A stretch of DNA of 39,966 bases from a virus (lineage: Duplodnaviria; Heunggongvirae; Uroviricota; Caudoviricetes). Shown in pieces: positions 14,121-31,567 of the stretch. The position numbers and the translations under genes are program-made. The notes beneath the pieces are model-generated. The model searched no databases, was not told the DNA's origin, and worked only from the letters and a program-made list of their open reading frames with translations. The stretch is taken from IMG/VR virus record IMGVR_UViG_2534682349_000001; one strand, given 5' to 3'. Position 1 is the stretch's first letter; each line of letters begins with the position of its first letter.

Positions 14121-14122
14121 TC

Positions 14123-14155
14123 AATTTGACCAAGGTTTAACCTTGGTTGTACATA
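14123..14155 (+). repeat. 33-bp direct repeat with internal palindrome, copy 1
   Basis: AATTTGACCAAGG-TTT-AACCTTGGTTGTACATA. Confidence 0.9.
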
Positions 14156-14238
14156 ATTTTTAATCTTTTATTTCTTTTCCATATTAGATATGGGAATATG
14201 TTAAAGGTATATTATTTGTTTCTATGGAGGAATTAAAG

Positions 14239-14754
14239 GTGAAAAAAATAAAAGAGTTTATGATTGACCATAAAATTATGACTGTTCTTTGCTTTCTTAT
14301 ACTAATATGTGCGATTGTTGGTGGAAAAGATTTTATAGACCAGTATAGGGAGCAACAACAGTTTTATGCAGAACATCCTTTAGTAAACAAGGTTTATAAA
14401 TATCATTTTAGAGAAAAGCCGTATAGTGGACCTTGGGCAGAAGGTACGTTCTATTATGTTTTCGGTGACCAAGAACATCGGAATGAAGTGGTTACTGTTT
14501 ATCACGGTGGAATAAAACGTGTAAAAGAAATATTGAATAATAAAGATAAATACAATAAGGAATTCTCTGATAAGGCTGAGAAATATATTATCAAAGATGG
14601 GAATAAATTAATCATTGGAACTGGTGATCTTGATGATGGTTACTCGCATCAGGTAAAAAAAGGGGAGAATTGGGTTGGAAGTTATGATTCCAACGATAAA
14701 AACGAAGAAATACCAGGTGAGATTCATAAAACAACACCAGTTAACATAAAATAA
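14239..14754 (+). CDS. Membrane-anchored accessory (moron-like) protein, function unknown
   Basis: RBS GGAGG (14226-30) favours GTG 14239. N-terminal TM segment IMTVLCFLILICAIVGG, then a soluble domain. Lies between two 33-bp direct repeats. Confidence 0.75.
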   Translation: MKKIKEFMIDHKIMTVLCFLILICAIVGGKDFIDQYREQQQFYAEHPLVNKVYKYHFREKPYSGPWAEGTFYYVFGDQEHRNEVVTVYHGGIKRVKEILNNKDKYNKEFSDKAEKYIIKDGNKLIIGTGDLDDGYSHQVKKGENWVGSYDSNDKNEEIPGEIHKTTPVNIK

Positions 14755-14774
14755 TCAATAACATAAACATATTT

Positions 14775-14807
14775 AATTTGACCAAGGGACAACCTTGGTT
14801 GTACATA
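14775..14807 (+). repeat. 33-bp direct repeat with internal palindrome, copy 2
   Basis: AATTTGACCAAGG-GAC-AACCTTGGTTGTACATA; 30/33 identical to copy 1, with differences only in the hairpin loop. Confidence 0.9.
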
Positions 14808-14838
14808 TCAAAAAATAAAAAGAAAGGAGCTGAATTGG

Positions 14839-16470
14839 TTGACGCAACCAATGCTAAATCAGGCGTCTAATTACGATGCGAAGAACTCATATACATTCAC
14901 ATTTACGTATTTGGGCGCAGAGCATACGACAACGAATACATTATCAATTCGTGAAGACGGTCCAGGAACAAAACCTGTCTACGAAAAGGATCAAGTTTCG
15001 CTAGATAAAAACCACATTTTACCAGCAAAAACTCTGAACAATGGTACGGCATATCTAGCAAAAGTTCGTGTTAAGCTCAAAGAAGGCTATTCTGAATGGT
15101 CTCCAGAGATTAAATTTACGTGTTATACAACACCACGAATTCTATTTGACACGATTGATCAACATCAATTTATCTATACGAATGATGTGTTAATGTCGGC
15201 TATTTATACACAAGCACAAAATGAGCCTGTTACGTCATATCAATATACTCTTTACGATCAAAGACATGTTGCTTTAGTTAAATATCCAATTCGGAAGCCA
15301 GAAAGAAATTCACCAACAAGATTTTCAGAACGTGTTTCAAATATAAAAAAAGGTAAATTATATTACATTGGATTGAAGGTAGTAACAGAGCACGGAATTA
15401 TTTATGAGCAACTTCAAGAGTTTACTGCTCAATATATTACGCCATCTGTATCGGGTATTATCCAGCCAACAATGAATAAAGATGACGGACAAATAGTCGT
15501 TGACCTTTTCCTAAAACAATTGTTAGGAACGTCAGCTCGTGCTTACATTCCTCATCGTAAAAATGATAATGCTGATAACTATACATATTGGAAAGATGAT
15601 TATGTCTTTGTCCCAAAAGAAAACCCTTTGATTTATACTAAGTTAGCGATGGCGAAAGCGAGTGATTGGATCGGAAAGTTCTGGGTAATGAATGTTCAGA
15701 ATGGATTATTCCTAGACTTCTCGCCAGCCGAAGATAGAGGACAGCATATAAAGTTCTATAAACATGATGATTATATTACCTGTGAAAAAGAATTTGGACA
15801 GATTAAATCCAGGACACGTTCTAATGTAATTAAGGATTTAAAACTGCGTCCTTTCTATATGTTTGTATATGTTAAGGAATATCGAGTTGAAATAAAGATA
15901 GTTCCTGATCAGACATTCAAAGATGATGATTGGAATGAAGAGTTATCCAAAGAAGAATTGTCTCAGTACGGTGAAATAACTAAAGAAACTCAACAAATGA
16001 TAGACGCAGCAGAAGCGAAAATTAACGCTGCAAGACAAAGGCTCCAACAAATCCACGATGAACATTGGCAACAATACATCACTAAGGTAGAGCAAGCAAT
16101 ATCTGACGCCAGAGCACGTATTTTAGGACAAAATGAACTACGCGATCGAGTGATGGAAATTGACGACCAGTATTGGGACTACTTTGAAAATACTGAAATG
16201 ATTAACTACTGGAAGGAATTAGCAAAGGCAGAACGTGAGTCTGAAGCTAAGTATGAAATCTATCGTACCGAATATGAGCAAAGAATTAATGATACCTTAT
16301 CGGAGATTAAAAGTGGTGCTATGACGCTTGATGATGGTCGATTGAAACTAACCCAATACAGCCTTGTATATAGTTTTATTTTACGTGAAGTAATTGATTT
16401 TAATGATACTAAACTGACATTAGATGGTCTTCAAGAGCTCTACAATGATTATTTACAAAAATATAAATAG
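14839..16470 (+). CDS. Baseplate/distal-tail protein with Fn3/Ig-like N-terminal domains and helical C-terminus
   Basis: RBS AAAGGAG and TTG start; Fn3-like signature (YLAKVRVKLKEGYSEWSPEIKF); follows the TMP. Confidence 0.6.
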   Translation: MTQPMLNQASNYDAKNSYTFTFTYLGAEHTTTNTLSIREDGPGTKPVYEKDQVSLDKNHILPAKTLNNGTAYLAKVRVKLKEGYSEWSPEIKFTCYTTPRILFDTIDQHQFIYTNDVLMSAIYTQAQNEPVTSYQYTLYDQRHVALVKYPIRKPERNSPTRFSERVSNIKKGKLYYIGLKVVTEHGIIYEQLQEFTAQYITPSVSGIIQPTMNKDDGQIVVDLFLKQLLGTSARAYIPHRKNDNADNYTYWKDDYVFVPKENPLIYTKLAMAKASDWIGKFWVMNVQNGLFLDFSPAEDRGQHIKFYKHDDYITCEKEFGQIKSRTRSNVIKDLKLRPFYMFVYVKEYRVEIKIVPDQTFKDDDWNEELSKEELSQYGEITKETQQMIDAAEAKINAARQRLQQIHDEHWQQYITKVEQAISDARARILGQNELRDRVMEIDDQYWDYFENTEMINYWKELAKAERESEAKYEIYRTEYEQRINDTLSEIKSGAMTLDDGRLKLTQYSLVYSFILREVIDFNDTKLTLDGLQELYNDYLQKYK

Positions 16471-16488
16471 TGAAGAGGTGAGGGTCTT

Positions 16489-17529
16489 TTGATTATAGGT
16501 GTCGATTATTTTAACTATGGATTTGACCAACAATTTTATGACACCCCTATTCCAACCTCTGAGATTGACGAGGTTATGATGGGGGCTGGAATGTATGATG
16601 AAATGTTTATTAGTGTGGATACAACTTTAGATGATTCACAAACCAAACCAGCTCAATGGAATCTGAAAACTATTATGGACGCTAAGTTTAATAATTCTCT
16701 TGAAGCTGGGAGTATTGACGGAGCTGGTCATATTGTCACCAAAATACAATGTTATCGTCGAGAATACATGAGCACGAATACGGATTGGCAATTAGTAGCG
16801 CAATTTGATTATGATGACCATTATAACCTTTATACGGTAGTTGATAGATTCATTGAAAATGGCAAAACATATGAATATGCAGTTGTTCCATTAGCCAATG
16901 AAATTCAAGGTGACTTACAAGTTGGCCCACCAATTGATAGCAAGTTTTATGGCTCCTTTATTTCTAATCTAGGTTCGAATTATTCAATGAACATCGACTT
17001 CAAGTTCTCGGATTTAGTTTGGAATTCTAACACGAGTACCAGTGTGCCGCTTAATGGTCAATATCCAATAGTGACGTTTGGAAATGCAAACTATCGAACT
17101 GGTACAGTTTCGTTCTTACCACTTACTCCGCAACAAGAATTTGGTTATGAAAACGAGATTGATCCACACGCCGAATACATTAATAGAACTAATGTTATTG
17201 ACTTCCTTAATGATGGACAAACAAAGGTAATTCGTCGTGAAGATGGAGATATTATTGTTTGTGCAACACATAATATTAAAACTACTCCGAAAGATGAAAG
17301 TCTTGAAGCTATTTCTACGGTAACATTTGATTTCACTGAAATAGGTAAATTAGATTACAACACCATGGAAAAAGCGGGATTAATTGCTGATGCAGGTAAA
17401 TCTGTCTACACATACGATGAAGATGGGAATATTAAGTGGAATCAGGAATATATTGCTGAAGATGGTTCTATTCAATCTAGAACTAGATATAGAAATTCAT
17501 TCTTATATGAACGAGATAATTTGAAGTAA
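16489..17529 (+). CDS. Putative distal tail (Dit-like) / baseplate protein
   Basis: RBS GAGGTGAGG; Fn3-like segment (VDRFIENGKTYEYAVVP) then a beta-rich Dit-like region (YPIVTFGNANYRTGTVSF...VTFDFTEIG); position. Confidence 0.5.
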   Translation: MIIGVDYFNYGFDQQFYDTPIPTSEIDEVMMGAGMYDEMFISVDTTLDDSQTKPAQWNLKTIMDAKFNNSLEAGSIDGAGHIVTKIQCYRREYMSTNTDWQLVAQFDYDDHYNLYTVVDRFIENGKTYEYAVVPLANEIQGDLQVGPPIDSKFYGSFISNLGSNYSMNIDFKFSDLVWNSNTSTSVPLNGQYPIVTFGNANYRTGTVSFLPLTPQQEFGYENEIDPHAEYINRTNVIDFLNDGQTKVIRREDGDIIVCATHNIKTTPKDESLEAISTVTFDFTEIGKLDYNTMEKAGLIADAGKSVYTYDEDGNIKWNQEYIAEDGSIQSRTRYRNSFLYERDNLK

Positions 17530-17541
17530 GAGGGATAAAAT

Positions 17542-19638
17542 ATGCCACTGAAATACAAAAAGCCCAATTACAATGAAACGTTATCGAATATTGTAAATGG
17601 GCTTGAAGAAAAAGTAAGTGGTCGAGCAGCAAGTGTTTTACGACAACCAATTCGCAACCTTCAAACAACTATTCAAGTGTTGGATAATGATGGCTCCATA
17701 ATTGATACTATTACTGGAAAAACAACTGGTGGAACTATTAATTATGATGCAACCTCATTGATACGACGAACGGGAACTTTGAAGATGGTTGTTGATCCTT
17801 CATATATGCCAAATAACAAAAGTGTTTTTTGGTTTGATAAGAAGTTTAGAGTCTATCAAGGAGTTGTTGATTTATCTCGTTTCCCCAGAGAGGCAGTTAA
17901 CTTTTTACTAGGAACGTTTTGGGTTAACGAATCCTCTCTACGTTTTGATAAAACAACACGTGAAATATCAGTTACGTTAGCTGACAAAATGACCTTATGG
18001 GACGGCCAGGGACTAGAAAATAAACTCAAAATAAAGCGTGGAACACCTATGAGTGATGCTATCAGAGGAATCATGGAATTAGTGGGAGAAACAGATTTTG
18101 GGTATATGTACACCAGTAATGGTGAAGAAATCCTTCAGTACGATTACGAAAAGGAACCGGGCACTTCAATCAATGATATCATTGAAGACTTTCGTGATAT
18201 GTACATGGATTTTATCTGTGGCTATAATTCTCTTGGTCAATTTGAGTATCGGAAGTTGCCTATTCAAAAGGAAGAAGAAATTCCTAAGCCTAAATGGGAA
18301 TTTGATGCAACTTCACAAGATAGAGCAGATCTTACCTTATCATTTCAAGAAAGCTACGACTTAAAGAATGTTAAGAACAGATTTGTTGTTATTGGGTCCA
18401 CATCAACCAAAACAGGCTATACACCTAAGGGTTCAGTAAAAATTACTGATACAAATAGCGAGTTTAATATAGATGCTATCGGAACTAGAACAAAGGTTAT
18501 CCAAAATAGTGATCTAACAAATGATCTACAGTGTGTATCTCAAGCACGATATGAAATGTGGAAAGCTGCACACTTCCAAGAAAAAGTAAGCATTGATGTT
18601 TCTCCAGTTTACTTCTTGCAACCCAATGATGTTATTCTGGTCACCAATCCTGTAACAAAAAAAGTATATCAGTACATGATTGATACTATTCAAATTGACT
18701 TAGCTGTCGATGGAATTATGTCAATTGACGCTCATAAAATGTACTTTGTTAAGCCGGATTATGGTGAGGCAGATATGCCAATTGTGGCGGCTATCAAAAA
18801 TGGTATCAATAAATTAGGCTGGTTGTCACTTCCAGAAGAAAGGATTAAGGATACGTATGGTATTTCCGCCGATGGAAAGAATTACTTGAGTATACGATTC
18901 GTCGTTGATGAAGAAGGTGGATGGCAAGCAGAAACAACTGCGTATAACACTTCCAGAAATCAAACACTAGAAATCGACCTTCGAGATTTTGAAAAGCTCA
19001 ATCTTAAGGATGAAAATGGTGACGTTGGTAGATCTAAAGGTGATTATGCAGATCGTGTACTCGGACATGAAATGTTTCATGCAGTATGTAACGATTTCTA
19101 TGGTGCGGTTAAGACGATGGATATGCCTGTATGGTTTAAAGAAGGCTTTGCAGAGTTACTTCATGGTGGAAAAGATCGTTACGTAACAATAACGGGATTT
19201 GAAAGTAAGGAAGCTAAGAAACAAGCGCTAATTAAGCGAGCTAGGAACCAACTAAATGGAACATGGGAGAGTACATCAGATGACTATGTAGCTGCTTATC
19301 TGATTGCTTGTGCTATGTATTATTTGGTTGGTGATTTAAATGGTCTTCATGACATGTTTCAGCGACTAGAAAAAGAAAGTAACTTAAATTTGAACTTTCT
19401 GTACAAAGCATTACCTATTACTGAATCGGCAGGTCAAATCTTCGATAAGGTAATTGATAAAATGCAAAAGATGCCAATTTGGGATTTCTTAAATGACCCT
19501 ACAGATGTAGACACATGTTCTATTGGTGGAAATCATATGCTTAATATATATGACAGACCACTTAGTCCAGAAGATGTGTTTAACAATCAGACGGCAACAA
19601 CTGATTCATTAGGATTTAAAATTAAGTTCGACGAGTAG
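17542..19638 (+). CDS. Tail hub/Tal-like protein with C-terminal gluzincin metallopeptidase (flagellinolysin-like)
   Basis: The N-terminal ~410 aa resemble phage tail hub proteins (probably DUF5048-type). The C-terminal part has HEMFH (aa 509-513) and the third zinc ligand E534 in WFKEGFAE. Confidence 0.75.
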   Translation: MPLKYKKPNYNETLSNIVNGLEEKVSGRAASVLRQPIRNLQTTIQVLDNDGSIIDTITGKTTGGTINYDATSLIRRTGTLKMVVDPSYMPNNKSVFWFDKKFRVYQGVVDLSRFPREAVNFLLGTFWVNESSLRFDKTTREISVTLADKMTLWDGQGLENKLKIKRGTPMSDAIRGIMELVGETDFGYMYTSNGEEILQYDYEKEPGTSINDIIEDFRDMYMDFICGYNSLGQFEYRKLPIQKEEEIPKPKWEFDATSQDRADLTLSFQESYDLKNVKNRFVVIGSTSTKTGYTPKGSVKITDTNSEFNIDAIGTRTKVIQNSDLTNDLQCVSQARYEMWKAAHFQEKVSIDVSPVYFLQPNDVILVTNPVTKKVYQYMIDTIQIDLAVDGIMSIDAHKMYFVKPDYGEADMPIVAAIKNGINKLGWLSLPEERIKDTYGISADGKNYLSIRFVVDEEGGWQAETTAYNTSRNQTLEIDLRDFEKLNLKDENGDVGRSKGDYADRVLGHEMFHAVCNDFYGAVKTMDMPVWFKEGFAELLHGGKDRYVTITGFESKEAKKQALIKRARNQLNGTWESTSDDYVAAYLIACAMYYLVGDLNGLHDMFQRLEKESNLNLNFLYKALPITESAGQIFDKVIDKMQKMPIWDFLNDPTDVDTCSIGGNHMLNIYDRPLSPEDVFNNQTATTDSLGFKIKFDE

Positions 19639-19685
19639 ATTTTATTGAGGAGGACATTAATACATATGAGAGGAAGTTGTATTAA

Positions 19686-20420
19686 ATGTCGAGATCTACT
19701 TTTCCGCAAAAGATAGATGTATTTAGAGAATTATTTGATCTTCCGGCAAATCAAGTTGCAAATGCACTAGAATTGCAGAGATTAAAACAAAAGACAACAC
19801 TAACAAATGATGAACAAAACCAAATTTCCGCATTAAGTGCCCAACTACAAGATTATATGATTACACCTGAAACCATGAATAAACTTCAGGACGCAATTGT
19901 AGAAATTGAGACATTCTTTGATGGGAATGTAAGAAAGTATATTCTTGAAAAGCAGAAAGAATGGGACACCTACGTTAACGATTTTGATTATGTAGGTGAA
20001 TGGGACGCAACGAAGAAGTTCAAGAAACATAATCTTATAACATATCAAGGTGCATTATATATTGTTACAAAAGATGTGGTAGCGGATAGGCAACATACAC
20101 CAGATAATGATTCCGATCATTATCGGCCTGCATCTAGTAAGGGTGACAAGGGTGATATAGGATTAAATGCTATTTTTAAGGGTGAATGGAATGGAGCTAC
20201 TAGCTATAAGGCTGGTGATGCCGTGTCCGTTCGTGAAGGCCAAAGTTGGCGCCCGTTAGATTTAGTATTTATTGCTAAAAAAGATAATCAAGGTCAAAAG
20301 CCAACTATAGGTGCTGCAAGTGATTATTGGTTCCCATATCATAATTTAATTATTGTTCCTAAAGAATATGCTAACTATAAATTTCATCCAGATATTCATC
20401 GAATCCAGATAGTTGATTAG
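19686..20420 (+). CDS. Baseplate/tail structural protein with C-terminal carbohydrate-binding-like repeats
   Basis: MSRSTFPQKID...ITPETMNKLQDA N-terminus resembles SPbeta-like tail genes (recall); two GEW-x5-Y-x3-(D/N)-x-V/I repeats. Confidence 0.55.
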   Translation: MSRSTFPQKIDVFRELFDLPANQVANALELQRLKQKTTLTNDEQNQISALSAQLQDYMITPETMNKLQDAIVEIETFFDGNVRKYILEKQKEWDTYVNDFDYVGEWDATKKFKKHNLITYQGALYIVTKDVVADRQHTPDNDSDHYRPASSKGDKGDIGLNAIFKGEWNGATSYKAGDAVSVREGQSWRPLDLVFIAKKDNQGQKPTIGAASDYWFPYHNLIIVPKEYANYKFHPDIHRIQIVD

Positions 20421-20430
20421 AGGTGGGAGA

Positions 20431-20820
20431 ATGGAAGTTAGCGAACAACAAAAAGGATTATTAGAAGCCATGCGAACAATAGCTCAGCATGAAGCACAAC
20501 GTAATTCAGGGCCACAGTTTCAAACAGGTGTCGTGGTGGAAGATCCTGCTGGATATAAATGTATTGTCAGAGTGAATGATACCGAAAAAACATGTACTTT
20601 GCCAGAACATTTGCATGATTGGGTAAGCAAAGACGATATAGTTCAAGTTTGCGATATGTATGGGAATGGTGCTGAGCTAATTGTCACTGGATCTTCTGGA
20701 TCAATAAGAAAGAAAACATTGGTTGTTAACGATGAAGATAAAGATAAGTTAACTGGTGGCGTTACTAAATTTGCAGATGATAGTGGAAATTTAACCGATA
20801 ATACACTAACGCTAGAGTAG
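20431..20820 (+). CDS. Small baseplate protein, possible OB-fold spike-like
   Basis: RBS GAGGTGGGAG before ATG 20431; QTGVVV...KCIVRVN...DDIVQV pattern. Positional call. Confidence 0.35.
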   Translation: MEVSEQQKGLLEAMRTIAQHEAQRNSGPQFQTGVVVEDPAGYKCIVRVNDTEKTCTLPEHLHDWVSKDDIVQVCDMYGNGAELIVTGSSGSIRKKTLVVNDEDKDKLTGGVTKFADDSGNLTDNTLTLE

Positions 20821-20834
20821 AGAGAGGGTATTAA

Positions 20835-22190
20835 ATGGCTGTAAAAAGAGCAAAATATTTAGTTGCAGATGATGAATATCATTTCGTAACAGACGACAAG
20901 GCTCTTAGAGTCCTAGATTCAAATAATAATGAAATTGGAACTTTTAGAGAATTAGGCTTTGAGGGAAAATTAATCACAAGTGGTGATTATAGAGATATAA
21001 AGCATACGGGTGTGTACCGAATTAAAGGCGTGGGAGGCTTGCCTGGAAATATACCGGGAGATAAGGAATCCATTCTGACGGTTACATCGATTGGCGCTCA
21101 GAACAATCCGGAATTGACCTTCTATAAGGTAATAAGTCCTAACGGAGTAATTTTAGAAAATACTGTCTCACGAAGTAATCAGTCTGGATGGGGATCTGGT
21201 GGTGTTGATTTACGGAATACCATTACAAGTATTAACAATATTATTGGTGATATTTCAAAACTTCAGACAGATTCCAAGAATATGACTGGGGCAATTAATG
21301 AGTTAAATTCCAAAATAAATAATGTATCTGGCAACTCACAAAGTGGGTTGGAGAGCTTAAAAAAAGATAGCGACAATAGATATTTATTCAAGTGGGGAGA
21401 TACGGTTAATGGTGATCTTTCAATCAAGTTTGGAGCGAAATACAAACTTCGAGGTAAGAATGGTCATGACTACAATTTAGCTTCTATTGACGACAATAAT
21501 AATATCCATATTGGCGATGCAGACACTAACTTACATTTTTGGGGTAATGATAATCCTACTTTTAATGGTAAAAAGATATTTACTGAAGCCAATGTAGGTA
21601 GTGGATCTGGACTTGACGCCGATAAGCTTGATGGGATTGACAGCTCTGGCTTCTTAAAGACTAATAGCGATGATACTAAATATAGTGGTCTTCGCATGGA
21701 TAAACGGAACATTCACTTCAATATCAAAGATGGCGAAAATACAGAAACAGGATTAGTTTTTGATAAGAATAATAAGTGGACTGCTAAAGTTGTTGCAACC
21801 GATATTGGTGATGTCCATATTCAAACAGGTGGTAAAGAGTATAAATATCCTCCATTTACGTTCAATCAAGATCGTAATTTTGTTCAATATGGTGGTATGC
21901 ACGTTATTCGAGCCAATGAGCCACAAATTAATTTTCAGACATTTGATGAAAAAACTGGAAACTTTGATAAAGGAGTAGGGTTTTTCAAGCCAGCATGGGA
22001 TCAAGGATCATTGGCAGTTGGAAATTGGAATACTTCTGAAGTTGTTGCTCAATTTGCTGTTGGAGCCAATCATGAAGCAGTTAAGCTGAATCACTCTCCT
22101 TACATCGGTGACCATAATAGAAGATTATTTATGCAGGACGAACAGCCTAGTGGAGACGTTCCAGTGGGATCAGTCTGGATTGGTATTTAG
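20835..22190 (+). CDS. Tail fibre protein
   Basis: Knob-like segment (IKHTGVYRI...SGWGSG), coiled coil, the LDADKLDGIDSSGF fibre motif, and C-terminal QDEQPSGDVPVGSVWI. Confidence 0.75.
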   Translation: MAVKRAKYLVADDEYHFVTDDKALRVLDSNNNEIGTFRELGFEGKLITSGDYRDIKHTGVYRIKGVGGLPGNIPGDKESILTVTSIGAQNNPELTFYKVISPNGVILENTVSRSNQSGWGSGGVDLRNTITSINNIIGDISKLQTDSKNMTGAINELNSKINNVSGNSQSGLESLKKDSDNRYLFKWGDTVNGDLSIKFGAKYKLRGKNGHDYNLASIDDNNNIHIGDADTNLHFWGNDNPTFNGKKIFTEANVGSGSGLDADKLDGIDSSGFLKTNSDDTKYSGLRMDKRNIHFNIKDGENTETGLVFDKNNKWTAKVVATDIGDVHIQTGGKEYKYPPFTFNQDRNFVQYGGMHVIRANEPQINFQTFDEKTGNFDKGVGFFKPAWDQGSLAVGNWNTSEVVAQFAVGANHEAVKLNHSPYIGDHNRRLFMQDEQPSGDVPVGSVWIGI

Positions 22191-22203
22191 GAGGTAGTTG
22201 TAA

Positions 22204-22893
22204 ATGCCATTTGTAAAATATAGAGGAGCCAATGGAGAGTGGATCAAACTTGGCGGTGGAAATGTTCGTGTGTCTAATGGGCATACGTGGATTCCGCCAC
22301 GTGCAAGAATTTGGAATGGTCATGAGTGGTTGAACTTGCTAGAGGAACGTAAAACTACAACTTGGGAAGCAACCTGGAGCGAAGGCTATTGGGGACCATC
22401 TAAAGGAAATCTTGCTCATACCCATTATAATTCGTTAGTAAGACACGATCGGCTATGCCAAGGAAACTATTTACCCTACCACGACAACTTTATTGGCCGT
22501 CAAGGTCGAGAAGGTGGTATGTTTGGTGTCGATATTGAAAATATGCGTAATGAATTACAAGGAAGTAGGATAGAAAAAATAGAAGTGTATCTCCACGTTC
22601 TTCATAGTGGATATTACTCAGGGACGGATATAATCGTTGGGGCGCATAATTGTCGTGATTGGCAAGATAGATTTAGCCAGATTAATTATGGAGTAGCGTC
22701 TGCGCGTTATTATCGTCGAGATCAGGGGCAATGGATTACATTGCCTAATTGGGTTGGCGATAACTTAAGAGATGGTAAATTAAGTGGACTTACAACTTAT
22801 GCCGATCAACCAGACCTTTGGCATTATGCTTACTGTGCGGGTATCTGGGATGGCTGGAAAAAGCCAAAGATTCGCATTACATACTGGAAATAG
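22204..22893 (+). CDS. Distal fibre / receptor-binding-like protein
   Basis: RBS GGAGG; Trp/Tyr/Gly-rich beta-sandwich-like sequence (TTTWEATWSEGYWG...IEKIEVYLHVLH...GQWITLP) typical of siphovirus minor tail C-terminal domains. Confidence 0.55.
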   Translation: MPFVKYRGANGEWIKLGGGNVRVSNGHTWIPPRARIWNGHEWLNLLEERKTTTWEATWSEGYWGPSKGNLAHTHYNSLVRHDRLCQGNYLPYHDNFIGRQGREGGMFGVDIENMRNELQGSRIEKIEVYLHVLHSGYYSGTDIIVGAHNCRDWQDRFSQINYGVASARYYRRDQGQWITLPNWVGDNLRDGKLSGLTTYADQPDLWHYAYCAGIWDGWKKPKIRITYWK

Positions 22894-22894
22894 A

Positions 22895-22956
22895 GTGTTA
22901 AATATTTTTGTTGTGTGTTATCATATTTATATAATCACAACGAAAATATTTAACAC
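22895..22956 (+). promoter_or_regulatory. 21-bp inverted repeat enclosing a TATAAT, upstream of the endonuclease
   Basis: GTGTTAAATATTTTTGTTGTG, 20-nt loop with TATAAT (22930-35), then CACAACGAAAATATTTAACAC; one mismatch, which is a G-U pair in RNA. Confidence 0.7.
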
Positions 22957-22973
22957 GAGAATTGAGGGGTTAG

Positions 22974-24310
22974 ATGGGAAAAGATTGGTCTATTGATTTT
23001 GATGCCAAATTGCATGATAAATTCGGGGCGATGTTGTAAGACTTGAACCTTATGTGAATAAGAGTACAACAATTAAATTTAGACATAAATGTGGAAATGA
23101 TTACTATGCAGTTCCACGAGGAGTGCTAAAGAGTAAGGTGGGTTCATGTACTAAGTGTAGAAAACGAAATACAGGTTGCCGTAAGAAAAAAAGTAATGAT
23201 GATTTTAAGCGGGAGGTTAAAGCACTAGTTGGTGATGAATATTCTTTTTTAGACCCTTATACAAGAGCACATGATAAGATACGTTGTCGACATAATAAAT
23301 GTGACAATGTATGGCTAGTAAAACCCAACGCATTTCTAAATGGAACCAGGTGTCCAAATATAGATTGTATTCCTAAAAAACCATACAAAAATCGGGCACA
23401 GATTGAGCGAGAAATTCGCAATAAGACTAATGATGAATATCGTATGGCAGAACCATATAGGGGTGATGGTGAAAAGATCCTTTTTATTCATAGATATTGT
23501 GGGAATAAATGGAGAATAAAACCCAATGATATCCTTAATGGTCACGGATGCCCAAAATGCACAATGACACAACAATGGAGTACGCAAAGACTTGCTTGTT
23601 ATATTACAGGCATAACCCATGGAGAATATGAACTGCTGAGCGAATATTCGAGTATGTCAGAGCCAGTAAGAATTAAACATAATAAATGCGGATCAATATA
23701 TTCGACACGACCAGCTTCATTCAAAGAGGGGCATAGATGCTATAACTGTGCTATGAAGCAAGTTGGTGAATTAAGACGAATATCCTCCTATGAGTTTTAT
23801 GAAAGAGTGTATAAGCTATTGGGTAGCGACTATGAAATAAGTGAATTTAGCACAAGAAACGAAAAGGTATTAGTGAAACACAAGAGGTGCGGAAACCTTT
23901 GGAAAACGGCTGCAAAGAATATTTTGTCTGGTTCAGGTTGTCCATTTTGTAAATCCTCTAGAGGAGAAAGAGTTATTAATTTATGGTTAAAGTCACATAA
24001 TATTCAGACAGAATATCAGAAGAAATTTGTAGACTGCAAAGATCAGCGTTCACTCCCATTTGACTTTTATCTTCCCGATTATAATTTGGTTATTGAATAT
24101 GATGGAAGACAGCATTTTCAAGGGTATGACTATTTTGGTGGAGAAGAAGCCTATAAGATTCGTCACAAACATGATTTAATCAAAAACAAATATTGTGAAG
24201 ATAATAATATTAATCTATTACGTATTCCATATACGGTTACCGGGGAAGACATCGGTAAAGTAATTCAGAATAAATTAGATGAATTAACACAACTCGATAA
24301 AGTTGCTTAA
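22974..24310 (+). CDS. Free-standing zinc-ribbon-repeat endonuclease with Vsr/DUF559-like nuclease domain (homing-endonuclease-like); one-base frameshift near the 5' end
   Basis: Five H-x1-2-CG...CxxC modules and C-terminal FDFYLP...IEYDGRQH. RBS GAGGGG and ATG 22974 give MGKDWSIDFDAKLHDKFG, which continues in the -1 frame as GDVVRLEPYVNKSTT at the G4 run 23025-28 (about 445 aa if joined). Confidence 0.8.
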
Positions 24311-24367
24311 AATTAAATACTAAAACTAAGGAGGACAAAATAAAACACTCGAAAGGAGCAATTTATT

Positions 24368-25674
24368 TTGTTCAAGAAGTTTCTAAAAAGAATGATAATA
24401 GTCATTGCTACTATTATTCTTGTTATTCCTATTTTTTCAGGATTAGCAGGTGCAGATGCCAGGTCATATGGACCTGATCTATCAAAATATCAAGGTGCTT
24501 ATGCAAGTAAGCCTTATGCGCGAGATCAGTTTGCAATTGCACAAGTTGGTGGATACGTAAATGGTTATTTCTATGACCAATGGACATATCCAACACAAAT
24601 TAGTTCAGGTATTGCTAATGGGTTGAGAATGCACACTTATATTTGGTATCAAGTTGGTGGAAATGCTCAATTGGGGAAGCAGGTTGTAGATCATTTTCTA
24701 CCAAAGATCCAAGCGCCTAAGGGGTCGATCATTGCATTAGATTATGAAGATGGAGCATCTTGGGACAAGAATGCTAACACAGAAGCTATTTTAGCTGGTA
24801 TGCGTGAAATTAAGGCTGCGGGATACGAGCCGATGTATTACTCATACAAGCCATATACCCTGGCTCACGTTGACTATAATCGTATTATTGCTGAATTCCC
24901 TAACTCTGGATGGATTGCAGCATACCCAGATTACAATGTTCGTACAGAACCATACTGGGGTGTATTCCCTTCACTTCCAGGAATTAGTATCTACCAATTT
25001 ACTAGCACGTATCGTGCTGGCGGTTTAGACGGTAATATTTCATTAGCACCTAATGGTCGTGACATTACTATGAGCGGTTACGTCAATGGAAATTCACAAA
25101 AGCCAAAGACTGAAACTCCTGCAACTGAACAAGGTAAGCAAATTCATAAGGATACTCATAACTACACTGTAAAATCGGGTGATAGTTGGTGGGGAATTGC
25201 CAACAAGTATGGAATGGAAATGAACGCCTTAGCACAATTGAATGGCAAGACCATTAATGACGTAATTCACCCAGGACAGGTTATTCGTGTTGCTGATAAG
25301 GGAGAAGGTCAATCTGTTTCAAACAAGGTTAACACTACCCCGCACAACCAAAGCCAGTGCAACCAGCAAATAACACTCAATATTACACTGTTAGATACAA
25401 CGACTCATTCTGGTCCATTGCGAACAAGTATGGCATGAATATGTACACACTTGCTGCTAATAATGGATTAAGCATTAACTCAGTTATTTACCCTGGGCAA
25501 CGCTTAAAGGTGAGTGGTAACGCACAAGCAACTCAAAAGGTTCACTATGTTAAATATGGTGAAACGCTAAGCGGAATTGCTGCACAGCTCGGAACTACTG
25601 TATCTCATTTACAAGCAGTAAACGGAATTCGAAACGCTAACTATATCTGGGTCGGCCAAAGAATCGCTGCATAA
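24368..25674 (+). CDS. Endolysin: signal peptide + GH25 muramidase + 3 LysM, split by a one-base frameshift after LysM1
   Basis: GH25 motifs GPDLSKYQG and IALDYE; LysM1 YTVKSGDSWWGIA. The -1 frame from the C4 run 25338-41 gives the linker PAQPKPVQPANN and two more LysM domains (about 435 aa joined). Confidence 0.9.
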
Positions 25675-25712
25675 CATATTCGTTTGTAAAACATGGGTTT
25701 TATAAACTTTTG

Positions 25713-25751
25713 TAGAGTCGCGAACTCAATATTCACGGCTCTATGTACATA
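25713..25751 (+). other. Stem-loop followed by TGTACATA
   Basis: TAGAGTCGCGAA-CTCAATA-TTCACGGCTCTA, then TGTACATA; no U-tail. Confidence 0.5.
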
Positions 25752-25824
25752 AATATATTTATACTAATTCACCAATTAGTAGTTAAGGAGGAAAAATTAA
25801 TTACTCATGAGGTGAAGTAAAGAT

Positions 25825-28800
25825 ATGAAATACTTAACAACATATCTTGATGACGAAATTAATTTCAAATTTGGCAACAATGGATCAATTATTGAATTGA
25901 AAGCCGTTGATGACCATGCTGTAATGAGTTTTTCTAATGAAGAAAAACTCTTAATTCGGATTAAAAATGAAGAATCTTATATTAAGACTGTCCCTGTAAC
26001 AGCCAAACGTAAGATTATTCAACTCCCGACCAAGTTATTAAAAGACCTAACGGTAGGTCAGTATGATGTTGAGTTATGGCAAGGCGAAGGTGATGATCAA
26101 GTTATCTACCCTGACGAAGGTTTTCTTAGATTAAAGATACATGGTAACGCGTCACAAATTGATGGTAGTTTGGTTTCTTCTATTACTCTTGCCGATTTTG
26201 AAAAGAAGTTTAATGACCTAGCTCAAAAGATTGAGGATAAATTAGAGAAATTACCAGATATCGATGGGAAGAATATTAGCATCGATGTGAAAGTAGTTGA
26301 TGGCAACCTTTGTATTAACGGCAAAGATACAGGAATTAACCTAACTGCCAAGGATGGTAGAGACGGAAGAGATGGACATACGCCAGAAATCACTGTATCA
26401 GATGCAGGTACACTTGTTGTTGATGGAATTGACACTAATAAATCTTTAATCGGTCCTAGAGGTGAGAATGGACTTCCGGGCAAGGATGGAGTTGCTGGTC
26501 AAGATGGTAAATCTGCCTATCAAGTAGCTGTCGATAATGGGTTTGATGGGACAGAGGTCGAATGGTTACGCTCATTGCATGGAAATGATGGCCTTGATGG
26601 AAAGTCAGGTAGAGACGGACTTCCAGGACAGAGTGGTAAATCTGCCTATGAGATAGCTATCACAAATGGATTTACGGGAACTGAAACTGAATGGTTAGAA
26701 TCTCTTAAAGGACGAGACGGACATGATGGTAAAGATGCAAATGTTGATTTGTCAAAATATCCAACTAAGGACGAGATAGCTAATCAGTATGTTCAAAGAA
26801 CTGATTTACCTAATATTATTTTAGATACAGATCAACGTACACTAATAATTAACAATAAGGAAATTAAGATTCCGAACAGTATTGATCTATCTAATTACGC
26901 TCAAAAGTCAGAAATACCAAACATTGTCTTCGATGTAGAAAATAATATGCTTACCATTAATGGTAATGAAGTTAAGATTCCTAAGGACGTCGATTTATCT
27001 GTATATTACACAAAAGCAGATATTGACGAAAAGATTGCTACAGTCCAATCTGGTGGAAAAATAGATCTAAGCAACTATGTTACACAACAAGAATTGTCAG
27101 AATACGTAAAGAAGACTGATATTCCAGTTGTTCCAGATTTAGCTCCTTATGAAACTAAGGAAAATGCTGAAAGAACTTATGCTACTAAAGAAGAGGTTGC
27201 TAATATTCAACTAATTCCAGGCAAAAACGGTCTTTCAGCCTATGAATTAGCCAAAAAAGATGGATTCCATGGTACAGAGATTGAATGGTTAGCATCCTTA
27301 AAAGGAAAAGATGCTAATCCTACACTAGTTCTTAATACAATACACGATAAAGGTTTTTGGGGAGATACTACGATTCGGAATAGTTTTGACCCTCAAATAA
27401 ATATAGTAACAACAAAACCGTTAAAAGTAGGGAATTTAGCATCTATTACAATTGACAATGTAGTTTTACCTGGAAAAGCTGCGATTGGGGTAGGAACTCT
27501 TGAGGGTAGCACATATACTTTCGCTTATTGTAAAGTGGCAGATCTGTCTGTGGGAGATACAACTATTCAATTAGATTGGCCTATTCAGAACGATAATTAT
27601 TACCTTTTTGTTTCTGGAAAGCCATTCCAAACAAGAGGAAATGGAGATGTCGATGCTGGTAGTCGATTTAAGTATATGCTTGCAGATACAAGAAATTATG
27701 ATACCGGAAATCGAATTAAAGTAGACGGCGAAAGTTTAGGAAGCTTCAAGTATAACTTTGTCTTAAACTATACAGGAAAAACAAGAATTGATTTAGAGCA
27801 AATCTTGAAGAATACGATGCCGTATGCTAATAAGAAAATTACGTTTTTGGGCGACTCCGTTACATCAGGTGGAACAACTAGCAATGGGAAGCAAGCATTT
27901 AGCTATGTTGATTATCTAAAGGATTATTTGGGTGCCGAAATAACCAACAAGGGATTAAGCGGTTCAGTAATTACAGAAGGAAATATCGAAAACCAAACGC
28001 AATCATTTGTGTCGCGGTCAAACCAAATACAGGATCAAGATTTTGTAACTATTTTTGGTGGAATTAATGATTTTTGGTTTAATTCTCCTTTGGGAAGTAT
28101 GAAAGACAGTTCTGACAACGTTGAGACCTTCTATGGAGCATTAAAATTTTTAGTTGAGAATCTAAGTAAGAAAAATCCTAATGCACATTTTCTATTTGTA
28201 ACTCCATTAAAAGAGTGTAAAGAAGGAGCTCCACATACTTATGAGGATAATAACAAATTTGTTCTTTATAAAAACCGTGCCGGCTTCACAGAAGAGGACT
28301 ATGTAAATGCGATTAAAGAGGTTGCAGCATACTACAGTGTTCCAGTATTGGATCTATTCAACTCTAGCAACATGAATCCATACATTGAATCGCAACGACA
28401 ATATTTCGCTGACGATCTTCATCCAAATCAACTGGGGGCACAACGATTAGCATTACTAATTTCTCAAGTAATTAATAATGGAGTTTCTTCTGGATTTCTA
28501 CGGGGAGCAAATGGGAAATCAGCTTATTACCTATGGTTAGACGCTGGTAATAATGGTACAGAACAAGATTTCTTAAACTCACTTAAGGGTTTGCAGGGTG
28601 AGTCGGGGCCTGCTGGAAATAATGGTTCGGATGGAATGTCAGCTTATCAGATTGCATTAAAAAATGGCTTCTCTGGGACAGAAGCAGAGTGGTTAAACTC
28701 TCTTAAGGGTAAAGATGGTACCCCAGGAATTCAAGGTGCCCCAGGTGTATCTGGCAAGGATGGGCAACGAGGCGAGAGCGGGCTTTCTGCTTATGAAATA

Positions 28801-29460
28801 GCAAAGAGCAATGGCTTTATTGGTTCCGAGCAAGATTGGCTAACTTCACTTCATGGTCGAGATGGTATTGATGGGAAGTCGGGCCAGAATGGAGTTAATG
28901 GATTATCTGCTTATGAAGTTGCTCAAAAGAATGGTTTCTCTGGAACAGAACAAGAATGGTTGGCTTCACTTAGAGGAGAACGAGGTAGTGCGGGTATCCA
29001 AGGGGTCCCGGGAGAAAGTGGTAAAAGTGCCTATGAGACTTGGAAGTCGTTAGGCAATTCCGGCTCAGAACAGGATTTTGTAAATTCACTTAAAGGTGAG
29101 TCAGGTAAGAATGGCTCTGATGGCGTCAGAGGCGAGACTGGGCAATCAGCATATCAATTATGGTTATCAAAAGGTAATTCTGGTTCAGAAGATGATTTCT
29201 TGCAATCATTAAGAGGAAGTAAAGGGGATACTGGTTCTAGGGGGAGTGATGGAGTCCCTGGGAAGAGTGGATTGAGTGCTTATGAAATCTGGAAAAATGC
29301 AGGACATCAAGGTACAGAGCAAGATTTCCTTAACTCATTGCGAGGATCTCAAGGGGAAGAGGAAGTCAAGGAGTACCGGGGCCATCTGGGAAAGATGGTC
29401 TTTCAGCTTATGAGGTCGCAAAAAGAAATGGATTCACTGGAACTGAAAAAGAATGGATAG
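25825..29460 (+). CDS. Collagen-like stalk protein with SGNH/GDSL hydrolase domain (5' part of a frameshifted fusion with GH32)
   Basis: N-terminal domain typical of lactobacillus phage collagen-like proteins (YDVELW...IYPDEGFL); Gly-X-Y and SAYE repeats; SGNH blocks GDSVT, NKGLSG, GGINDF and DDLHPN (about 27826-28480). Confidence 0.85.
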   Translation: MKYLTTYLDDEINFKFGNNGSIIELKAVDDHAVMSFSNEEKLLIRIKNEESYIKTVPVTAKRKIIQLPTKLLKDLTVGQYDVELWQGEGDDQVIYPDEGFLRLKIHGNASQIDGSLVSSITLADFEKKFNDLAQKIEDKLEKLPDIDGKNISIDVKVVDGNLCINGKDTGINLTAKDGRDGRDGHTPEITVSDAGTLVVDGIDTNKSLIGPRGENGLPGKDGVAGQDGKSAYQVAVDNGFDGTEVEWLRSLHGNDGLDGKSGRDGLPGQSGKSAYEIAITNGFTGTETEWLESLKGRDGHDGKDANVDLSKYPTKDEIANQYVQRTDLPNIILDTDQRTLIINNKEIKIPNSIDLSNYAQKSEIPNIVFDVENNMLTINGNEVKIPKDVDLSVYYTKADIDEKIATVQSGGKIDLSNYVTQQELSEYVKKTDIPVVPDLAPYETKENAERTYATKEEVANIQLIPGKNGLSAYELAKKDGFHGTEIEWLASLKGKDANPTLVLNTIHDKGFWGDTTIRNSFDPQINIVTTKPLKVGNLASITIDNVVLPGKAAIGVGTLEGSTYTFAYCKVADLSVGDTTIQLDWPIQNDNYYLFVSGKPFQTRGNGDVDAGSRFKYMLADTRNYDTGNRIKVDGESLGSFKYNFVLNYTGKTRIDLEQILKNTMPYANKKITFLGDSVTSGGTTSNGKQAFSYVDYLKDYLGAEITNKGLSGSVITEGNIENQTQSFVSRSNQIQDQDFVTIFGGINDFWFNSPLGSMKDSSDNVETFYGALKFLVENLSKKNPNAHFLFVTPLKECKEGAPHTYEDNNKFVLYKNRAGFTEEDYVNAIKEVAAYYSVPVLDLFNSSNMNPYIESQRQYFADDLHPNQLGAQRLALLISQVINNGVSSGFLRGANGKSAYYLWLDAGNNGTEQDFLNSLKGLQGESGPAGNNGSDGMSAYQIALKNGFSGTEAEWLNSLKGKDGTPGIQGAPGVSGKDGQRGESGLSAYEIAKSNGFIGSEQDWLTSLHGRDGIDGKSGQNGVNGLSAYEVAQKNGFSGTEQEWLASLRGERGSAGIQGVPGESGKSAYETWKSLGNSGSEQDFVNSLKGESGKNGSDGVRGETGQSAYQLWLSKGNSGSEDDFLQSLRGSKGDTGSRGSDGVPGKSGLSAYEIWKNAGHQGTEQDFLNSLRGSQGEEEVKEYRGHLGKMVFQLMRSQKEMDSLELKKNG

Positions 29461-29470
29461 ACTCTTTGCG
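28501..29470 (+). repeat. Eight tandem ~38-41-aa units (Gly-X-Y)n-SAY(E/Q)xxxxxGxxG(T/S)Ex(E/D)(W/F)xxSL
   Basis: Seven units lie in the 25825 frame and the eighth continues in the -1 frame after 29358. Three more units occur earlier in the gene. Confidence 0.85.
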
Positions 29471-30947
29471 AAATCAAAACTTTAATAAAACGACTATAAA
29501 TAAAATATTTGATAAATACTCAAATAAGTTTCATATCAATATGCCAGATAATGGTTTCCTAAATGATGTGCAAGGGGCATTCTATCGTAATGGTATATGG
29601 CATATGTATTTCCTGTATAATGCTGACGCAAAATATAATGTAAATGGCGATCAAATTGGCGGCAATGGAACTGAATGGTACCATGTTACCACGAAAGATT
29701 GGGTGAAATGGAATTATGAAGGTGTCGCAATTCATAAATACAAAACCGCCTGGGGAGATGTTGCTTCTGGAACTATTTATATTGATTTTGATAATCGGTT
29801 TGGCAAAGGTAAAGACGCAGTTATTGTATTTGCTACAGCCTATGGCGGTGACAAGGGTCAGAATGTAATGGGGTATTACTCAACAGATAACGGTTACACA
29901 TTTAGTCCATTGCAGGCAGATCCAATTCTTCGACATGTCGGTGGATCAGATACCAATTTCAGAGATCCATACTTATTTAGAATGGGAGATACATGGGTTA
30001 TATATATGGCTGAGGGAGATAAATTTGGAATTTATACTTCAAACAATCCTCTGTCTGGATATAACTATATTGATGGTTATTTTGCGCCACACGCATTGTT
30101 AGAATGTCCATCGCTGTTTAAGTTAAATGTAAATGGAGATCAAAATAATCAAAAATGGGTATTATTCTATGGGGGTAATGGTGGAGATGATGCTACTACG
30201 GGAACTTATGCTTCTGTAGGGTATTTAACAGATAAATATGTATTCAAAGCTGAGCAGGAAAATATTCGTGTTGATTATGGTCCCGATTACTATGGTGCAA
30301 AAATGTTTTCAAATGAATTTAATAATAATGATTTTGTATATAGTGATGCTTGGTTAGGCAACTGGGGATATGCTACGAAGGTTCCTAATAATGGAAGAAT
30401 TGGGGCTATTTCAACCACAAGGAAAATTACTTTAAGGAATGAGAATAATAAATATACTTTGAATACTGAAATTGTCGGAGTATTTCCTGATTACCTTGAT
30501 AATCCGATTGTGGGTACAAATCTAAAAACTAATACAGGGCTACCTATGTTTAAAGGCGACAGTTTTTATTTGAAATTTAGAATTAAAGATGTTCGAAAAT
30601 TAAATGAAAACATGACGATTAAATTAGTTGGGAATCAATACGATTCTGATATGTTGTTTAACTTTAAGGATAATAATGTTAAAGTTCATCGATATAATAG
30701 CTCTTTTAATAATAATGATATCTATGGTAGAGACAGAATATTTAGCACCAATCTTGATAAAGAAAATGATTTGTGGATTGAATTGCTTGTCGACCGAACT
30801 TGTATAGAAATGCGCTTGTCTAACGGCGATATTTTTACAATGACAAAATTCCCTGCTGGACGGAGTAGAGAAAATATATGTGTTAGCGCAGATAACACAG
30901 TCAATTTCGATTATGAATATTATCAAATAATTCCACAAGAGGTGTAG
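29466..30947 (+). CDS. GH32 fructan hydrolase, levanase (LevB)-like; 3' part of the fusion (frame open from 29334)
   Basis: Catalytic motifs FLNDVQ (nucleophile D), FRDP and LECP. GNGTEW, GVAIxKY, YSTDxG, MAEGxK and KWVL match my recall of B. subtilis LevB. C-terminal beta-sandwich (ELLVDRTCIEM). Confidence 0.9.
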   Translation: MRNQNFNKTTINKIFDKYSNKFHINMPDNGFLNDVQGAFYRNGIWHMYFLYNADAKYNVNGDQIGGNGTEWYHVTTKDWVKWNYEGVAIHKYKTAWGDVASGTIYIDFDNRFGKGKDAVIVFATAYGGDKGQNVMGYYSTDNGYTFSPLQADPILRHVGGSDTNFRDPYLFRMGDTWVIYMAEGDKFGIYTSNNPLSGYNYIDGYFAPHALLECPSLFKLNVNGDQNNQKWVLFYGGNGGDDATTGTYASVGYLTDKYVFKAEQENIRVDYGPDYYGAKMFSNEFNNNDFVYSDAWLGNWGYATKVPNNGRIGAISTTRKITLRNENNKYTLNTEIVGVFPDYLDNPIVGTNLKTNTGLPMFKGDSFYLKFRIKDVRKLNENMTIKLVGNQYDSDMLFNFKDNNVKVHRYNSSFNNNDIYGRDRIFSTNLDKENDLWIELLVDRTCIEMRLSNGDIFTMTKFPAGRSRENICVSADNTVNFDYEYYQIIPQEV

Positions 30948-30951
30948 ATAA

Positions 30952-31222
30952 ATGTCAAAAATAGTATATAAATTGAATACTGAAAATGTATATATTTCTG
31001 CAAGACAGGTTGAGGATACATATCACCCCGACAAATACAACTGGTATTTTGGTCATGAAGGGTAACTATAATGGAATTTCAAGTAATGTAATAACTGTTC
31101 AAGATACAAATTCTAAGGTTGTAATTAACGGTGCTGCTAATAATAATTGGGTTATTTACAGCACAGAGGGATCAGCGTTCCAGGATGGTGGAAACCAGTC
31201 AAATAAGAATATAGGTATTTAA
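30952..31222 (+). other. Small ORF pair (30952-31065 with good RBS; 30986/31055-31222 in the +1 frame), possibly one broken gene
   Basis: RBS GAGGTG then ATG 30952 gives 37 aa; the listed 78-aa ORF overlaps it in another frame. Confidence 0.3.
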
Positions 31223-31229
31223 GAATTTT

Positions 31230-31264
31230 AAACAGTCTTCTTTACAGGAGACTGTTTTTATTTT
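31230..31264 (+). terminator. Rho-independent terminator ending the late region
   Basis: AAACAGTCTTC-TTTACA-GGAGACTGTTT followed by a T-rich tail. Confidence 0.85.
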
Positions 31265-31390
31265 ATTCAGACGGTTTACAGCAAAAATTACCGTCAACTA
31301 TATGGTATAAAAAATATATTCTCAATAAATAAATTTTTTATTTAGAAATTTATTGCCATTTGGTAATAAATTAGGAAAGGATGTTTGAAA

Positions 31391-31567
31391 ATGCTCAAAC
31401 AATCTTTAATTAAAGTTTTCGAGAAAGTAATGGGATATATAGTTGATTACAGTATAGTTATTCTTTATTTGGCGACAATTTATTTGATTTGGAAAGCCTT
31501 TAATATTCATCCGTTTGTCACTCTTCCAGTCATGGCATATGTAAGGAAGCACTTTGTAAAATCTTAG
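31391..31567 (+). CDS. Small membrane protein (about 58 aa) in its own transcription unit
   Basis: RBS AAAGGA; hydrophobic core YSIVILYLATIYLIW...FVTLPVMAYV; possible extended -10 TG-G-TATAAA at 31303-11; terminators on both sides. Confidence 0.5.
   Translation: MLKQSLIKVFEKVMGYIVDYSIVILYLATIYLIWKAFNIHPFVTLPVMAYVRKHFVKS

Follow-up and report, generated by a model that had tools for sequence, protein, structure and literature searches.

Phage depolymerases are known mostly as β-helix tailspikes. An SGNH esterase can also form part of a virion appendage, as in the deacetylating tailspike gp63.1 of coliphage G7C, which modifies a surface polysaccharide and leaves its backbone uncut. To our knowledge, the only phage levanases described so far are soluble enzymes of Bacillus phages. 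The window considered here, i.e. the whole 39,966-nucleotide stretch of a Caudoviricetes virus filed as IMG/VR record IMGVR_UViG_2534682349_000001, carries both kinds of domain in one gene: its positions 25825 to 30947 on the + strand correspond to a 1707-residue protein in which an N-terminal anchor, collagen-like repeats, an SGNH esterase and a glycoside hydrolase family 32 (GH32) head follow each other in series, a real and undescribed arrangement of known modules. The best explanation overall, to which a probability of about 0.7 may be given, is a single modular fibre gene with a proposed two-enzyme role.

When considered from the point of view of the head, the closest described phage enzyme is LevP of phiNIT1, which has homologs in SP-10, SPO1-like and BSP phages and shares with the head the GH32 family with its ND, RDP and EC motifs, a large myophage as carrier and a fructan-producing Gram-positive host. 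LevP-type proteins are 28-30% identical to the head over about 90% of its length; however, they are stand-alone open reading frames (ORFs) of 477-483 amino acids (aa) that match from their first residues and have neither anchor nor stalk, whereas here the GH32 domain forms the tip of a fibre in which an esterase is present as well. LevP, as well as PghP of the same phage, is described as a soluble, non-structural enzyme (PMC6966330). LevB1 (PDB 9h8i), a Bacillus enzyme of the LevB type, likewise shares the catalytic motifs, but it is cellular and secreted, and identity is modest. With regard to the anchor, possible counterparts are BppU (ORF48) of lactococcal phage TP901-1 and the corresponding proteins of 80alpha and NF5, which begin, at their extreme N-terminus, with an Ig-like domain followed by a helix that sits on a trimeric baseplate appendage; these are siphophages, whereas the phage of the window is large and its fibre gene lies outside the baseplate block. 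The repeat unit of the stalk, Gly-X-Y (GXY) triplets plus SAYE..NGF.GTE.EW..SL, recurs at 30-48% identity, in pieces, in Lactobacillus delbrueckii phages (Ld17, Ld25A and LL-K, with collagen-repeat tail fibres annotated in the first two) and in fibres of large Staphylococcus and Pseudomonas phages, but, unlike the window fibre, none of these records has a GH32 head. A similar design is that of L. reuteri proteins named “GDSL-type esterase/lipase family protein” (P0057 and P0058; also P0050), which share anchor, β-rich domain, SGNH domain and stalk, and differ in that their head is a right-handed β-helix (PF18835, PF05048, PF13229). Finally, gp63.1 of G7C acts on another host envelope, and the esterase of the window sits inside the chain, with further stalk units and a second enzyme behind it.

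Within a set of 50,697 phage records, GH32 was confined to Herelleviridae of Bacillus subtilis and a few human-faecal contigs that have no annotation, apart from an Enterococcus phage that gave a single weak and partial match (E 7e-4), while none of the Lactobacillaceae phages among them has it; megablast of the fibre gene and of window positions 1-25000 against the same records gave no match. In the full-text literature, neither a paper joining GH32, tail fiber and phage nor a description of a levanase from a reuteri phage was found.

The window is annotated with two ORFs at this locus, 25825-29460 (1211 aa) and 29466-30947 (493 aa). The first keeps the pattern of GXY triplets and SAYE units until ...NSLRGSQG, after which it reads EEEVKEY... 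and ends at the stop at 29460. The frame that is open from 29334 reads RGSQGVPGPSGKDGLSAYEVAKRNGFTGTEKEWIDSL, the exact continuation of the repeat unit, and runs stop-free into GH32 up to 30947, and restoring one frame takes one extra base within 29353-29358. These two frames are one gene, encoding a 1707-residue modular fibre protein, as the preliminary description had proposed from the DNA alone when it read the two ORFs as one gene short of a base at 29353-58: relatives and other assemblies are all in frame there, and the predicted length of about 1707 aa returns as an ORF of exactly 1707 aa (P0284) called on the ENA contig L026, at positions 13624-18747, where the junction reads RGSQGGRGSQGVPG. 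It had also pointed out that the TTG at 29466, the listed start of the 493-aa ORF, lacks a ribosome-binding site, and indeed no Shine-Dalgarno-like sequence was found upstream of it. The intact homologs are single genes and not two separate ones (P0003, 939 aa; P0056, 1667 aa; P0284).

The origin of the split can be read from two further assemblies, both retrieved by identity with an intact neighbouring protein (window 22204-22893). L026 (ENA ERZ13696056 NODE_25, 127.8 kb) corresponds to window 12204-32890 over 20,690 bases with 0 mismatches and three one-base gaps, and L029 (Logan contig SRR13827520, 13,045 bp) covers window 17344-30385, again with 0 mismatches and with these three gaps. All three are runs of G5 or C5 read as four in the window (at 23024, 25337 and 29352), and each breaks one gene. 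At 23024, a treble-clef zinc-finger protein (DUF4379/DUF5889) of 445 aa becomes a 418-aa ORF with a later start (gene 23054-24310); at 25337, where a C of C5 is missing, the GH25-LysM endolysin, a single 427-aa ORF in L026 and L029, becomes the ORFs 24368-25438 and 25357-25674; the third is the fibre gene. Because three frameshifts without any substitution, one of them in the endolysin, are not a plausible natural history, the split of the fibre gene is almost certainly an assembly error in which G5 at 29353 was called G4. A systematic collapse of all G5 runs was ruled out, since six of them remain in the window.

Other sources agree at the junction itself, which reads CAAGGGGAAGAGG in the window, CAAGGGGAAAGAGG in the L. 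caviae contig L012 and CAAGGGGAAAAAGG in L019 and L020, the relatives being in frame; more distant relatives have one more A at this site (GAAAGA or GAAAAA). When Logan contigs of four runs were compared with window 28900-29900, three (X1, X2 and X3) were identical except for an extra G behind 29352, and the fourth, from a dust metagenome, had 8 single-nucleotide differences and an extra A behind 29356. The weight of these data is lessened in that the two G5 assemblies may come from the window's own sample, and only the runs of a second study are independent, X1 being the possible source of the window and X2 and X3 being from another mouse-gut study. An exact-pattern scan of IMG/VR for the junction with G4, G5 or an extra A returned 0 loci.

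It is, by comparison, very unlikely that the frameshift is genuine and that the phage makes a 1211-residue fibre with 34 out-of-frame residues at its end, i.e. a natural null allele without the GH32 head. Loss of the head does occur, given that a sister lineage has a genuine null allele with an in-frame TAG within GH32, and the 1211-aa truncated product (P0001) is present letter for letter in the ESM Atlas, though perhaps from the same record. Against it stand the pattern of three one-base losses with 0 substitutions over 20.7 kb, and the fact that the GH32 propeller 3' of the break is 100% protein-identical to that of P0056. At the nucleotide level, this part differs from L019 and L012 at 10-11 positions (against L019, 7 synonymous and 4 non-synonymous codons), too few for a selection test. 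The chance of a programmed -1 frameshift, or of transcriptional slippage at the G run, giving rise to a short headless and a long GH32-tipped fibre, is practically negligible. Two-product tail genes made via frameshifting are common in phages and the break does lie in a homopolymer, but the two-frame arrangement is absent from all relatives and other assemblies examined, no slippery heptamer of the type X XXY YYZ is found around 29350-29360, and a like one-base loss affects two unrelated genes of the window; this explanation was thus rejected. The frameshift itself is therefore an artefact, of interest for annotation only. Long modular genes are hidden in broken records of this kind, and the artefactual product is already present in a protein resource.

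The domain order given in the preliminary description (anchor, collagen, β-rich domain, SGNH, eight-unit stalk, GH32) agrees with Pfam, PHROG and PDB comparisons and with the alignments; residues are numbered here according to P0284. The five-bladed propeller of GH32, the β-fructofuranosidase/levanase family of clan GH-J, matches PF00251 at E 1.1e-42 (147 bits, cut-off 22.1 bits, profile positions 3-303 of 307), and its triad is formed by the nucleophile Asp1248 (FLND), Asp1381 (FRDP) and the acid/base Glu1427 (LLEC). The three motifs, already listed as intact from the DNA alone, align with KNDPQ, FRDP and IIEC of LevB1, in an alignment that spans head residues 16-337. LevB1 is also the nearest solved relative (E 1.8e-41, followed by an invertase at 7e-26), and phrog_21583 “levanase” is matched at E 5e-38. 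The head thus appears closest to a LevB-type endolevanase (EC 3.2.1.65), in line with the earlier assignment. The region that follows the propeller is conserved in homologs; the C-terminal β-sandwich model PF08244 is recorded for several of them and does not reach the E 0.01 threshold on this protein.

What the head acts upon is a separate matter, and it is conceivable, although improbable, that it attacks inulin-type or dietary fructan, or that it is mainly an adhesin that binds fructan and retains virions in biofilm or digesta. Strains of L. reuteri convert sucrose into levan or inulin, and sequence is a poor guide to which of the two a synthase produces (PMC4667477). The motifs of GH32 do not reveal specificity: levan versus inulin and endo versus exo action are not readable from them, which counts against a firm assignment to levan. 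The GH32, SGNH and anchor parts all scored far below the cut-offs of the NCBIfam models, and no equivalog was assigned to the head. On the other side, the nearest solved and the nearest phage relatives, LevB1 and LevP, are endolevanases, and all three catalytic residues are kept, also in relatives at 55-66% identity, which favours catalysis over binding alone.

The esterase domain belongs to the SGNH superfamily with its catalytic set, including the Ser-Asp-His triad, complete, as claimed before: the GDS block (G676, D677, S678), Gly713, the GGIND block (G746, N748, D749) and the DDLH block (D863, H866) are invariant or nearly so across 60 aligned homologs. In the AlphaFold2 model, residues 661-890 reach a predicted local distance difference test score (pLDDT) of 84-98 and form a three-layer α/β/α flavodoxin-like fold, for which Foldseek gives 7bxd (E 1e-20, TMt 0.84) and 3dc7 from L. 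plantarum (TMt 0.83-0.85), both uncharacterised bacterial SGNH proteins, with carbohydrate esterases lower in the list. It also matches phrog_5240 “tail fiber protein” (E 6.6e-44). Most homologs are proteins of 700-950 aa that end in the SGNH domain, several of them with Pfam BppU_N, whereas here this domain is an internal bead. The pairing of esterase and fructanase recurs in another architecture, as the unrelated P0117 (939 aa, from ENA) has a GH32 enzyme with N and C domains and a C-terminal SGNH esterase.

The anchor falls into phrog_4440 “tail fiber protein” over residues 13-142 (E 4.8e-30), a label that is the name of a family and not an experiment. An exhaustive profile-free search found it in 212 representative proteins, which are 100-1583 aa long; in each of them it occupies the extreme N-terminus, a pattern typical of an attachment domain whose distal parts are interchangeable. 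Its AlphaFold2 model, built from 100 sequences, has a pLDDT of 84, and the best structural match (VIA) is BppU of TP901-1 (4v96_AL; root-mean-square deviation 2.8 over 103 residues), although its Z of 9.7 is barely above the Z of 9.4 reached by generic, unrelated Ig folds. Further matches are 3uh8 (Z 8.9) and baseplate chains of 80alpha (Z 8.9) and NF5 (Z 8.5), and the alignments to 4v96_AL and 3uh8 place N-terminus on N-terminus. A PDB profile search with the anchor alignment gave nothing meaningful. The anchor also has no match to Pfam BppU_N (PF10651) at E 0.01, a model that is recorded for related SGNH proteins with other N-termini; together with the generic Ig folds, this takes weight from the comparison, and the likeness of the modelled anchor to the BppU N-domain may be seen as a lead, not as proof. 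The N-terminus of the fibre, read directly, contains no hydrophobic stretch resembling a signal peptide.

Between and beyond these domains, eleven GXY runs of 3-9 triplets each alternate with 22-residue SAY..NGF.GTE.EW..SL units, and Pfam Collagen (PF01391) is matched in the 1211-aa ORF with 37.9 bits (cut-off 27.2 bits). The eight units that had been counted for the distal stalk are all there, with SAY motifs at 899, 939, 988, 1028, 1068, 1108, 1151 and 1194. The β-rich domain is restricted to relatives with at least 95% identity, has no PHROG match, and scores below 0.85 in the protein Atlas; its AlphaFold2 pLDDT is low (25-57) because it is covered by near-identical sequences only. A role as carbohydrate-binding module was considered and is unsupported.

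Proteins in which collagen-like repeats and GH32 occur in a single ORF make up at least eight clusters at 90% identity, with lengths of 570-939 aa. One of these is P0003 (939 aa, from an L. caviae assembly, on a phage contig of 123 kb), the first 302 residues of which are 98.7% identical to the window protein and are joined directly to the distal stalk, so that the esterase block is skipped. P0056 shows 94.9% identity along its entire length and is shorter by precisely one unit of 40 aa (residues 897-936), while P0050 (1625 aa) shares residues 1-1218 at 98.2% identity and continues, right after the last ...EW..SL unit, with its β-helix head; P0057 and P0058 from L. reuteri have the same design, P0058 being 84% identical over residues 1-1097. 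Since heads are swapped right after the last unit and the number of units varies, the repeat units behave as joints for recombination and exchange, to which either a GH32 or a β-helix head can be fitted.

The gene as a whole also varies in its presence. It is part of a cassette (Table 1) that lies between the endolysin and the replication genes and carries GTTTTATAAA(A)C at both borders; fibre-less relatives with about 95% nucleotide identity align until 25706, and their alignment picks up again at 31553, the two parts overlapping by 24 nt. A DNA search with the fibre gene found no match in the nearest genome (G001) or in the nearest virus record (G002). The sister lineage mentioned above (L013 at 7985-8003, and L014-L018) carries the in-frame TAG at the Gln of GDKGQNVMGYY, which lies in the GH32 propeller, after the nucleophile and before RDP. 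Six contigs, from five ENA assemblies and one Logan run, share this amber allele unchanged, and it yields ORFs of 1102 and 358 aa. With respect to a suppressor, neither the window nor the loci of three relatives showed a tRNA. Since close relatives share the baseplate genes but not the fibre, the fibre is an accessory and not the essential receptor-binding protein, and it is gained, lost and inactivated in nature.

The phage is a myophage of the 128-138-kb class that infects Limosilactobacillus of the reuteri/caviae group and stems from mouse-gut samples. Homologs with a species name are from assemblies of L. reuteri and L. caviae, and phage contigs of this kind occur in the L. caviae assembly GCA_021168645.1 and in L. 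reuteri isolates. The stretch occurs in metagenome runs from mouse gut, pig gut, faeces and, in one case, dust. The nearest genome, of 2.1 Mb, holds a related phage as a separate contig and a GH68 fructansucrase in an 804-aa ORF. In the rodent strain 100-23, loss of ftf abolishes the production of exopolysaccharide (EPS) and impairs colonisation in competition (PMC4667477).

Taken together, these data are compatible with the following mechanism, for which we infer virion attachment and the substrates of both enzymes. Three chains would assemble into a collagen-like trimer, as is generally known for repeats of this type, and the N-terminal domain would attach it to the baseplate, where it would form a side fibre that the phage can do without. 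The GH32 heads at the far end would cut the β-2,6-fructan (levan) that hosts of the L. reuteri group make from sucrose, while the SGNH beads would strip O-acyl groups from a second polysaccharide of the cell envelope or EPS. Acting together, the two enzymes could let the virion tunnel through the biofilm matrix and reach its receptor faster. This joint mechanism, i.e. a trimeric baseplate side fibre with levan-cutting tips and de-O-acylating beads, is held to be reasonably probable. A more far-reaching version is tentative, at somewhat less than an even chance: the fibre would be a dispensable, cassette-encoded side fibre with esterase bead and levanase tip in series that bores through host fructan biofilm, and the first virion-displayed GH32 fructanase; its collagen units would be standard joints for swapping heads and unit numbers, and loss of the cassette, together with nonsense alleles, would lead to mixed populations of degrading and non-degrading virions.

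Several points speak against a place in the virion. The gene lies 3' of the endolysin and outside the baseplate block, and relatives with an identical 229-aa baseplate-region protein, encoded just upstream, are without the whole cassette, the nearest virus record having an IS30-type transposase at the fibre locus. By analogy with LevP and PghP, the dispensable protein might act in solution once lysis has set it free. In its full form, this alternative, which is unlikely, has the intact protein absent from the virion and acting as a trimeric soluble enzyme complex that is set free at lysis and clears the fructan matrix around neighbouring cells. Apart from the gene position, it would fit the existence of fibre-less relatives, a cassette that brings along a promoter-like site and a terminator, and the solubility of the known phage levanases with their stand-alone ORFs (PMC6966330). 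It fits less well with an N-terminal domain that belongs to a tail-fibre-annotated family and is always followed by very varied distal parts, with the best fold matches of the anchor, to N-terminal baseplate-anchoring domains of TP901-1, 80alpha and NF5, with the BppU_N domain of related SGNH proteins, and with a stalk of about 1200 residues that has no obvious use in a free enzyme. Beside the transposase, the same locus of the nearest virus record (L011 7309-9172, corresponding to G002:C1 ~47300-49170 and also present on contig 2 of the 2.1-Mb genome) has a SUKH-1/SMI1 immunity-type gene, the transposase itself consisting of HTH_38 and rve domains.

If the fibre is indeed displayed on virions, a collagen-tethered GH32 in series with an SGNH esterase would add to the kinds of enzyme that phages may carry on their appendages. 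On the host side, the fructan that Ftf produces plays a part in how rodent L. reuteri colonises the gut (PMC4667477). Four natural variants (fibre-plus, fibre-less, β-helix head and amber-null) allow a direct test of what matrix-degrading fibres do in the dynamics of phage and host in biofilms, and the GH32 head is a candidate enzyme source for levan-oligosaccharides.

Table 1. Coordinates of the fibre gene, its domains and its flanking signals in the window
Feature	Position	Strand	Remarks
Fibre cassette, 5.85 kb	25707..31552	+	in window, L026, L029; absent from L022-L025, L027, L028
Promoter-like site	25732..25759	+	TTCACG-16-TATATT, 5' of fibre gene; consensus match only, weak; number of such sites not above shuffles
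Shine-Dalgarno-like GAGGTG, 10-nt spacer, ATG of fibre gene	25809..25827	+	P0003, P0056 and P0284 share the N-terminus
N-terminal anchor, residues 1-145	25825..26259	+	Ig-like β-sandwich 1-110, then helix 122-141
Proximal collagen-like region, residues 178-304	26356..26736	+	GXY runs, two SAY..NGF.GTE.EW..SL units
Residues 305-497	26737..27315	+	DLSxY..K.EIP repeats, then third SAY unit; PHROG: only short matches to tail proteins
β-rich domain, residues 498-660	27316..27804	+	no family assignment
SGNH/GDSL esterase, residues 661-892	27805..28500	+	PF13472, E 1e-21
Distal collagen-like stalk, residues 893-1218	28501..29477	+	eight GXY + SAY units; contains the break
G4 run (G5 in other assemblies)	29353..29356	+	one-base loss splits the fibre gene
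GH32 catalytic β-propeller, residues 1219-1545	29478..30458	+	PF00251
C-terminal region of head, residues 1546-1707 + stop codon	30459..30947	+	162 residues, presumed β-sandwich; contiguous with homologs over full length
Terminator-like hairpin	31230..31257	+	12 pairs, then T-run; 3' of fibre gene and small ORFs

A few minor observations concern the surroundings of the gene. Directly 3' of the fibre gene (30952-31222), L012 has one ORF of 90 aa, where the window, L026 and L019 have two of 37 and 55 aa; the split lies at a run of C4 or C5 around 31016, is also present in independent assemblies, and may point to a decaying fibre-assembly or accessory gene. Still within the cassette, a hydrophobic ORF of 60 aa at 31385-31567, with 58-aa ORFs in L013 and L026, looks membrane-like by direct reading. 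Genes resembling homing endonucleases (NUMOD4 and HNH_3) occur in different places in different relatives, at L013 3708-4508 and L022 15891-16952, either between endolysin and fibre or between the PD-(D/E)xK gene and that of DNA polymerase III alpha. Finally, in the baseplate block of the window, a 244-aa protein (19686-20420) has a sub-threshold match to CBM5/12 (E 3e-5, 24.4 bits against a cut-off of 26.2 bits).

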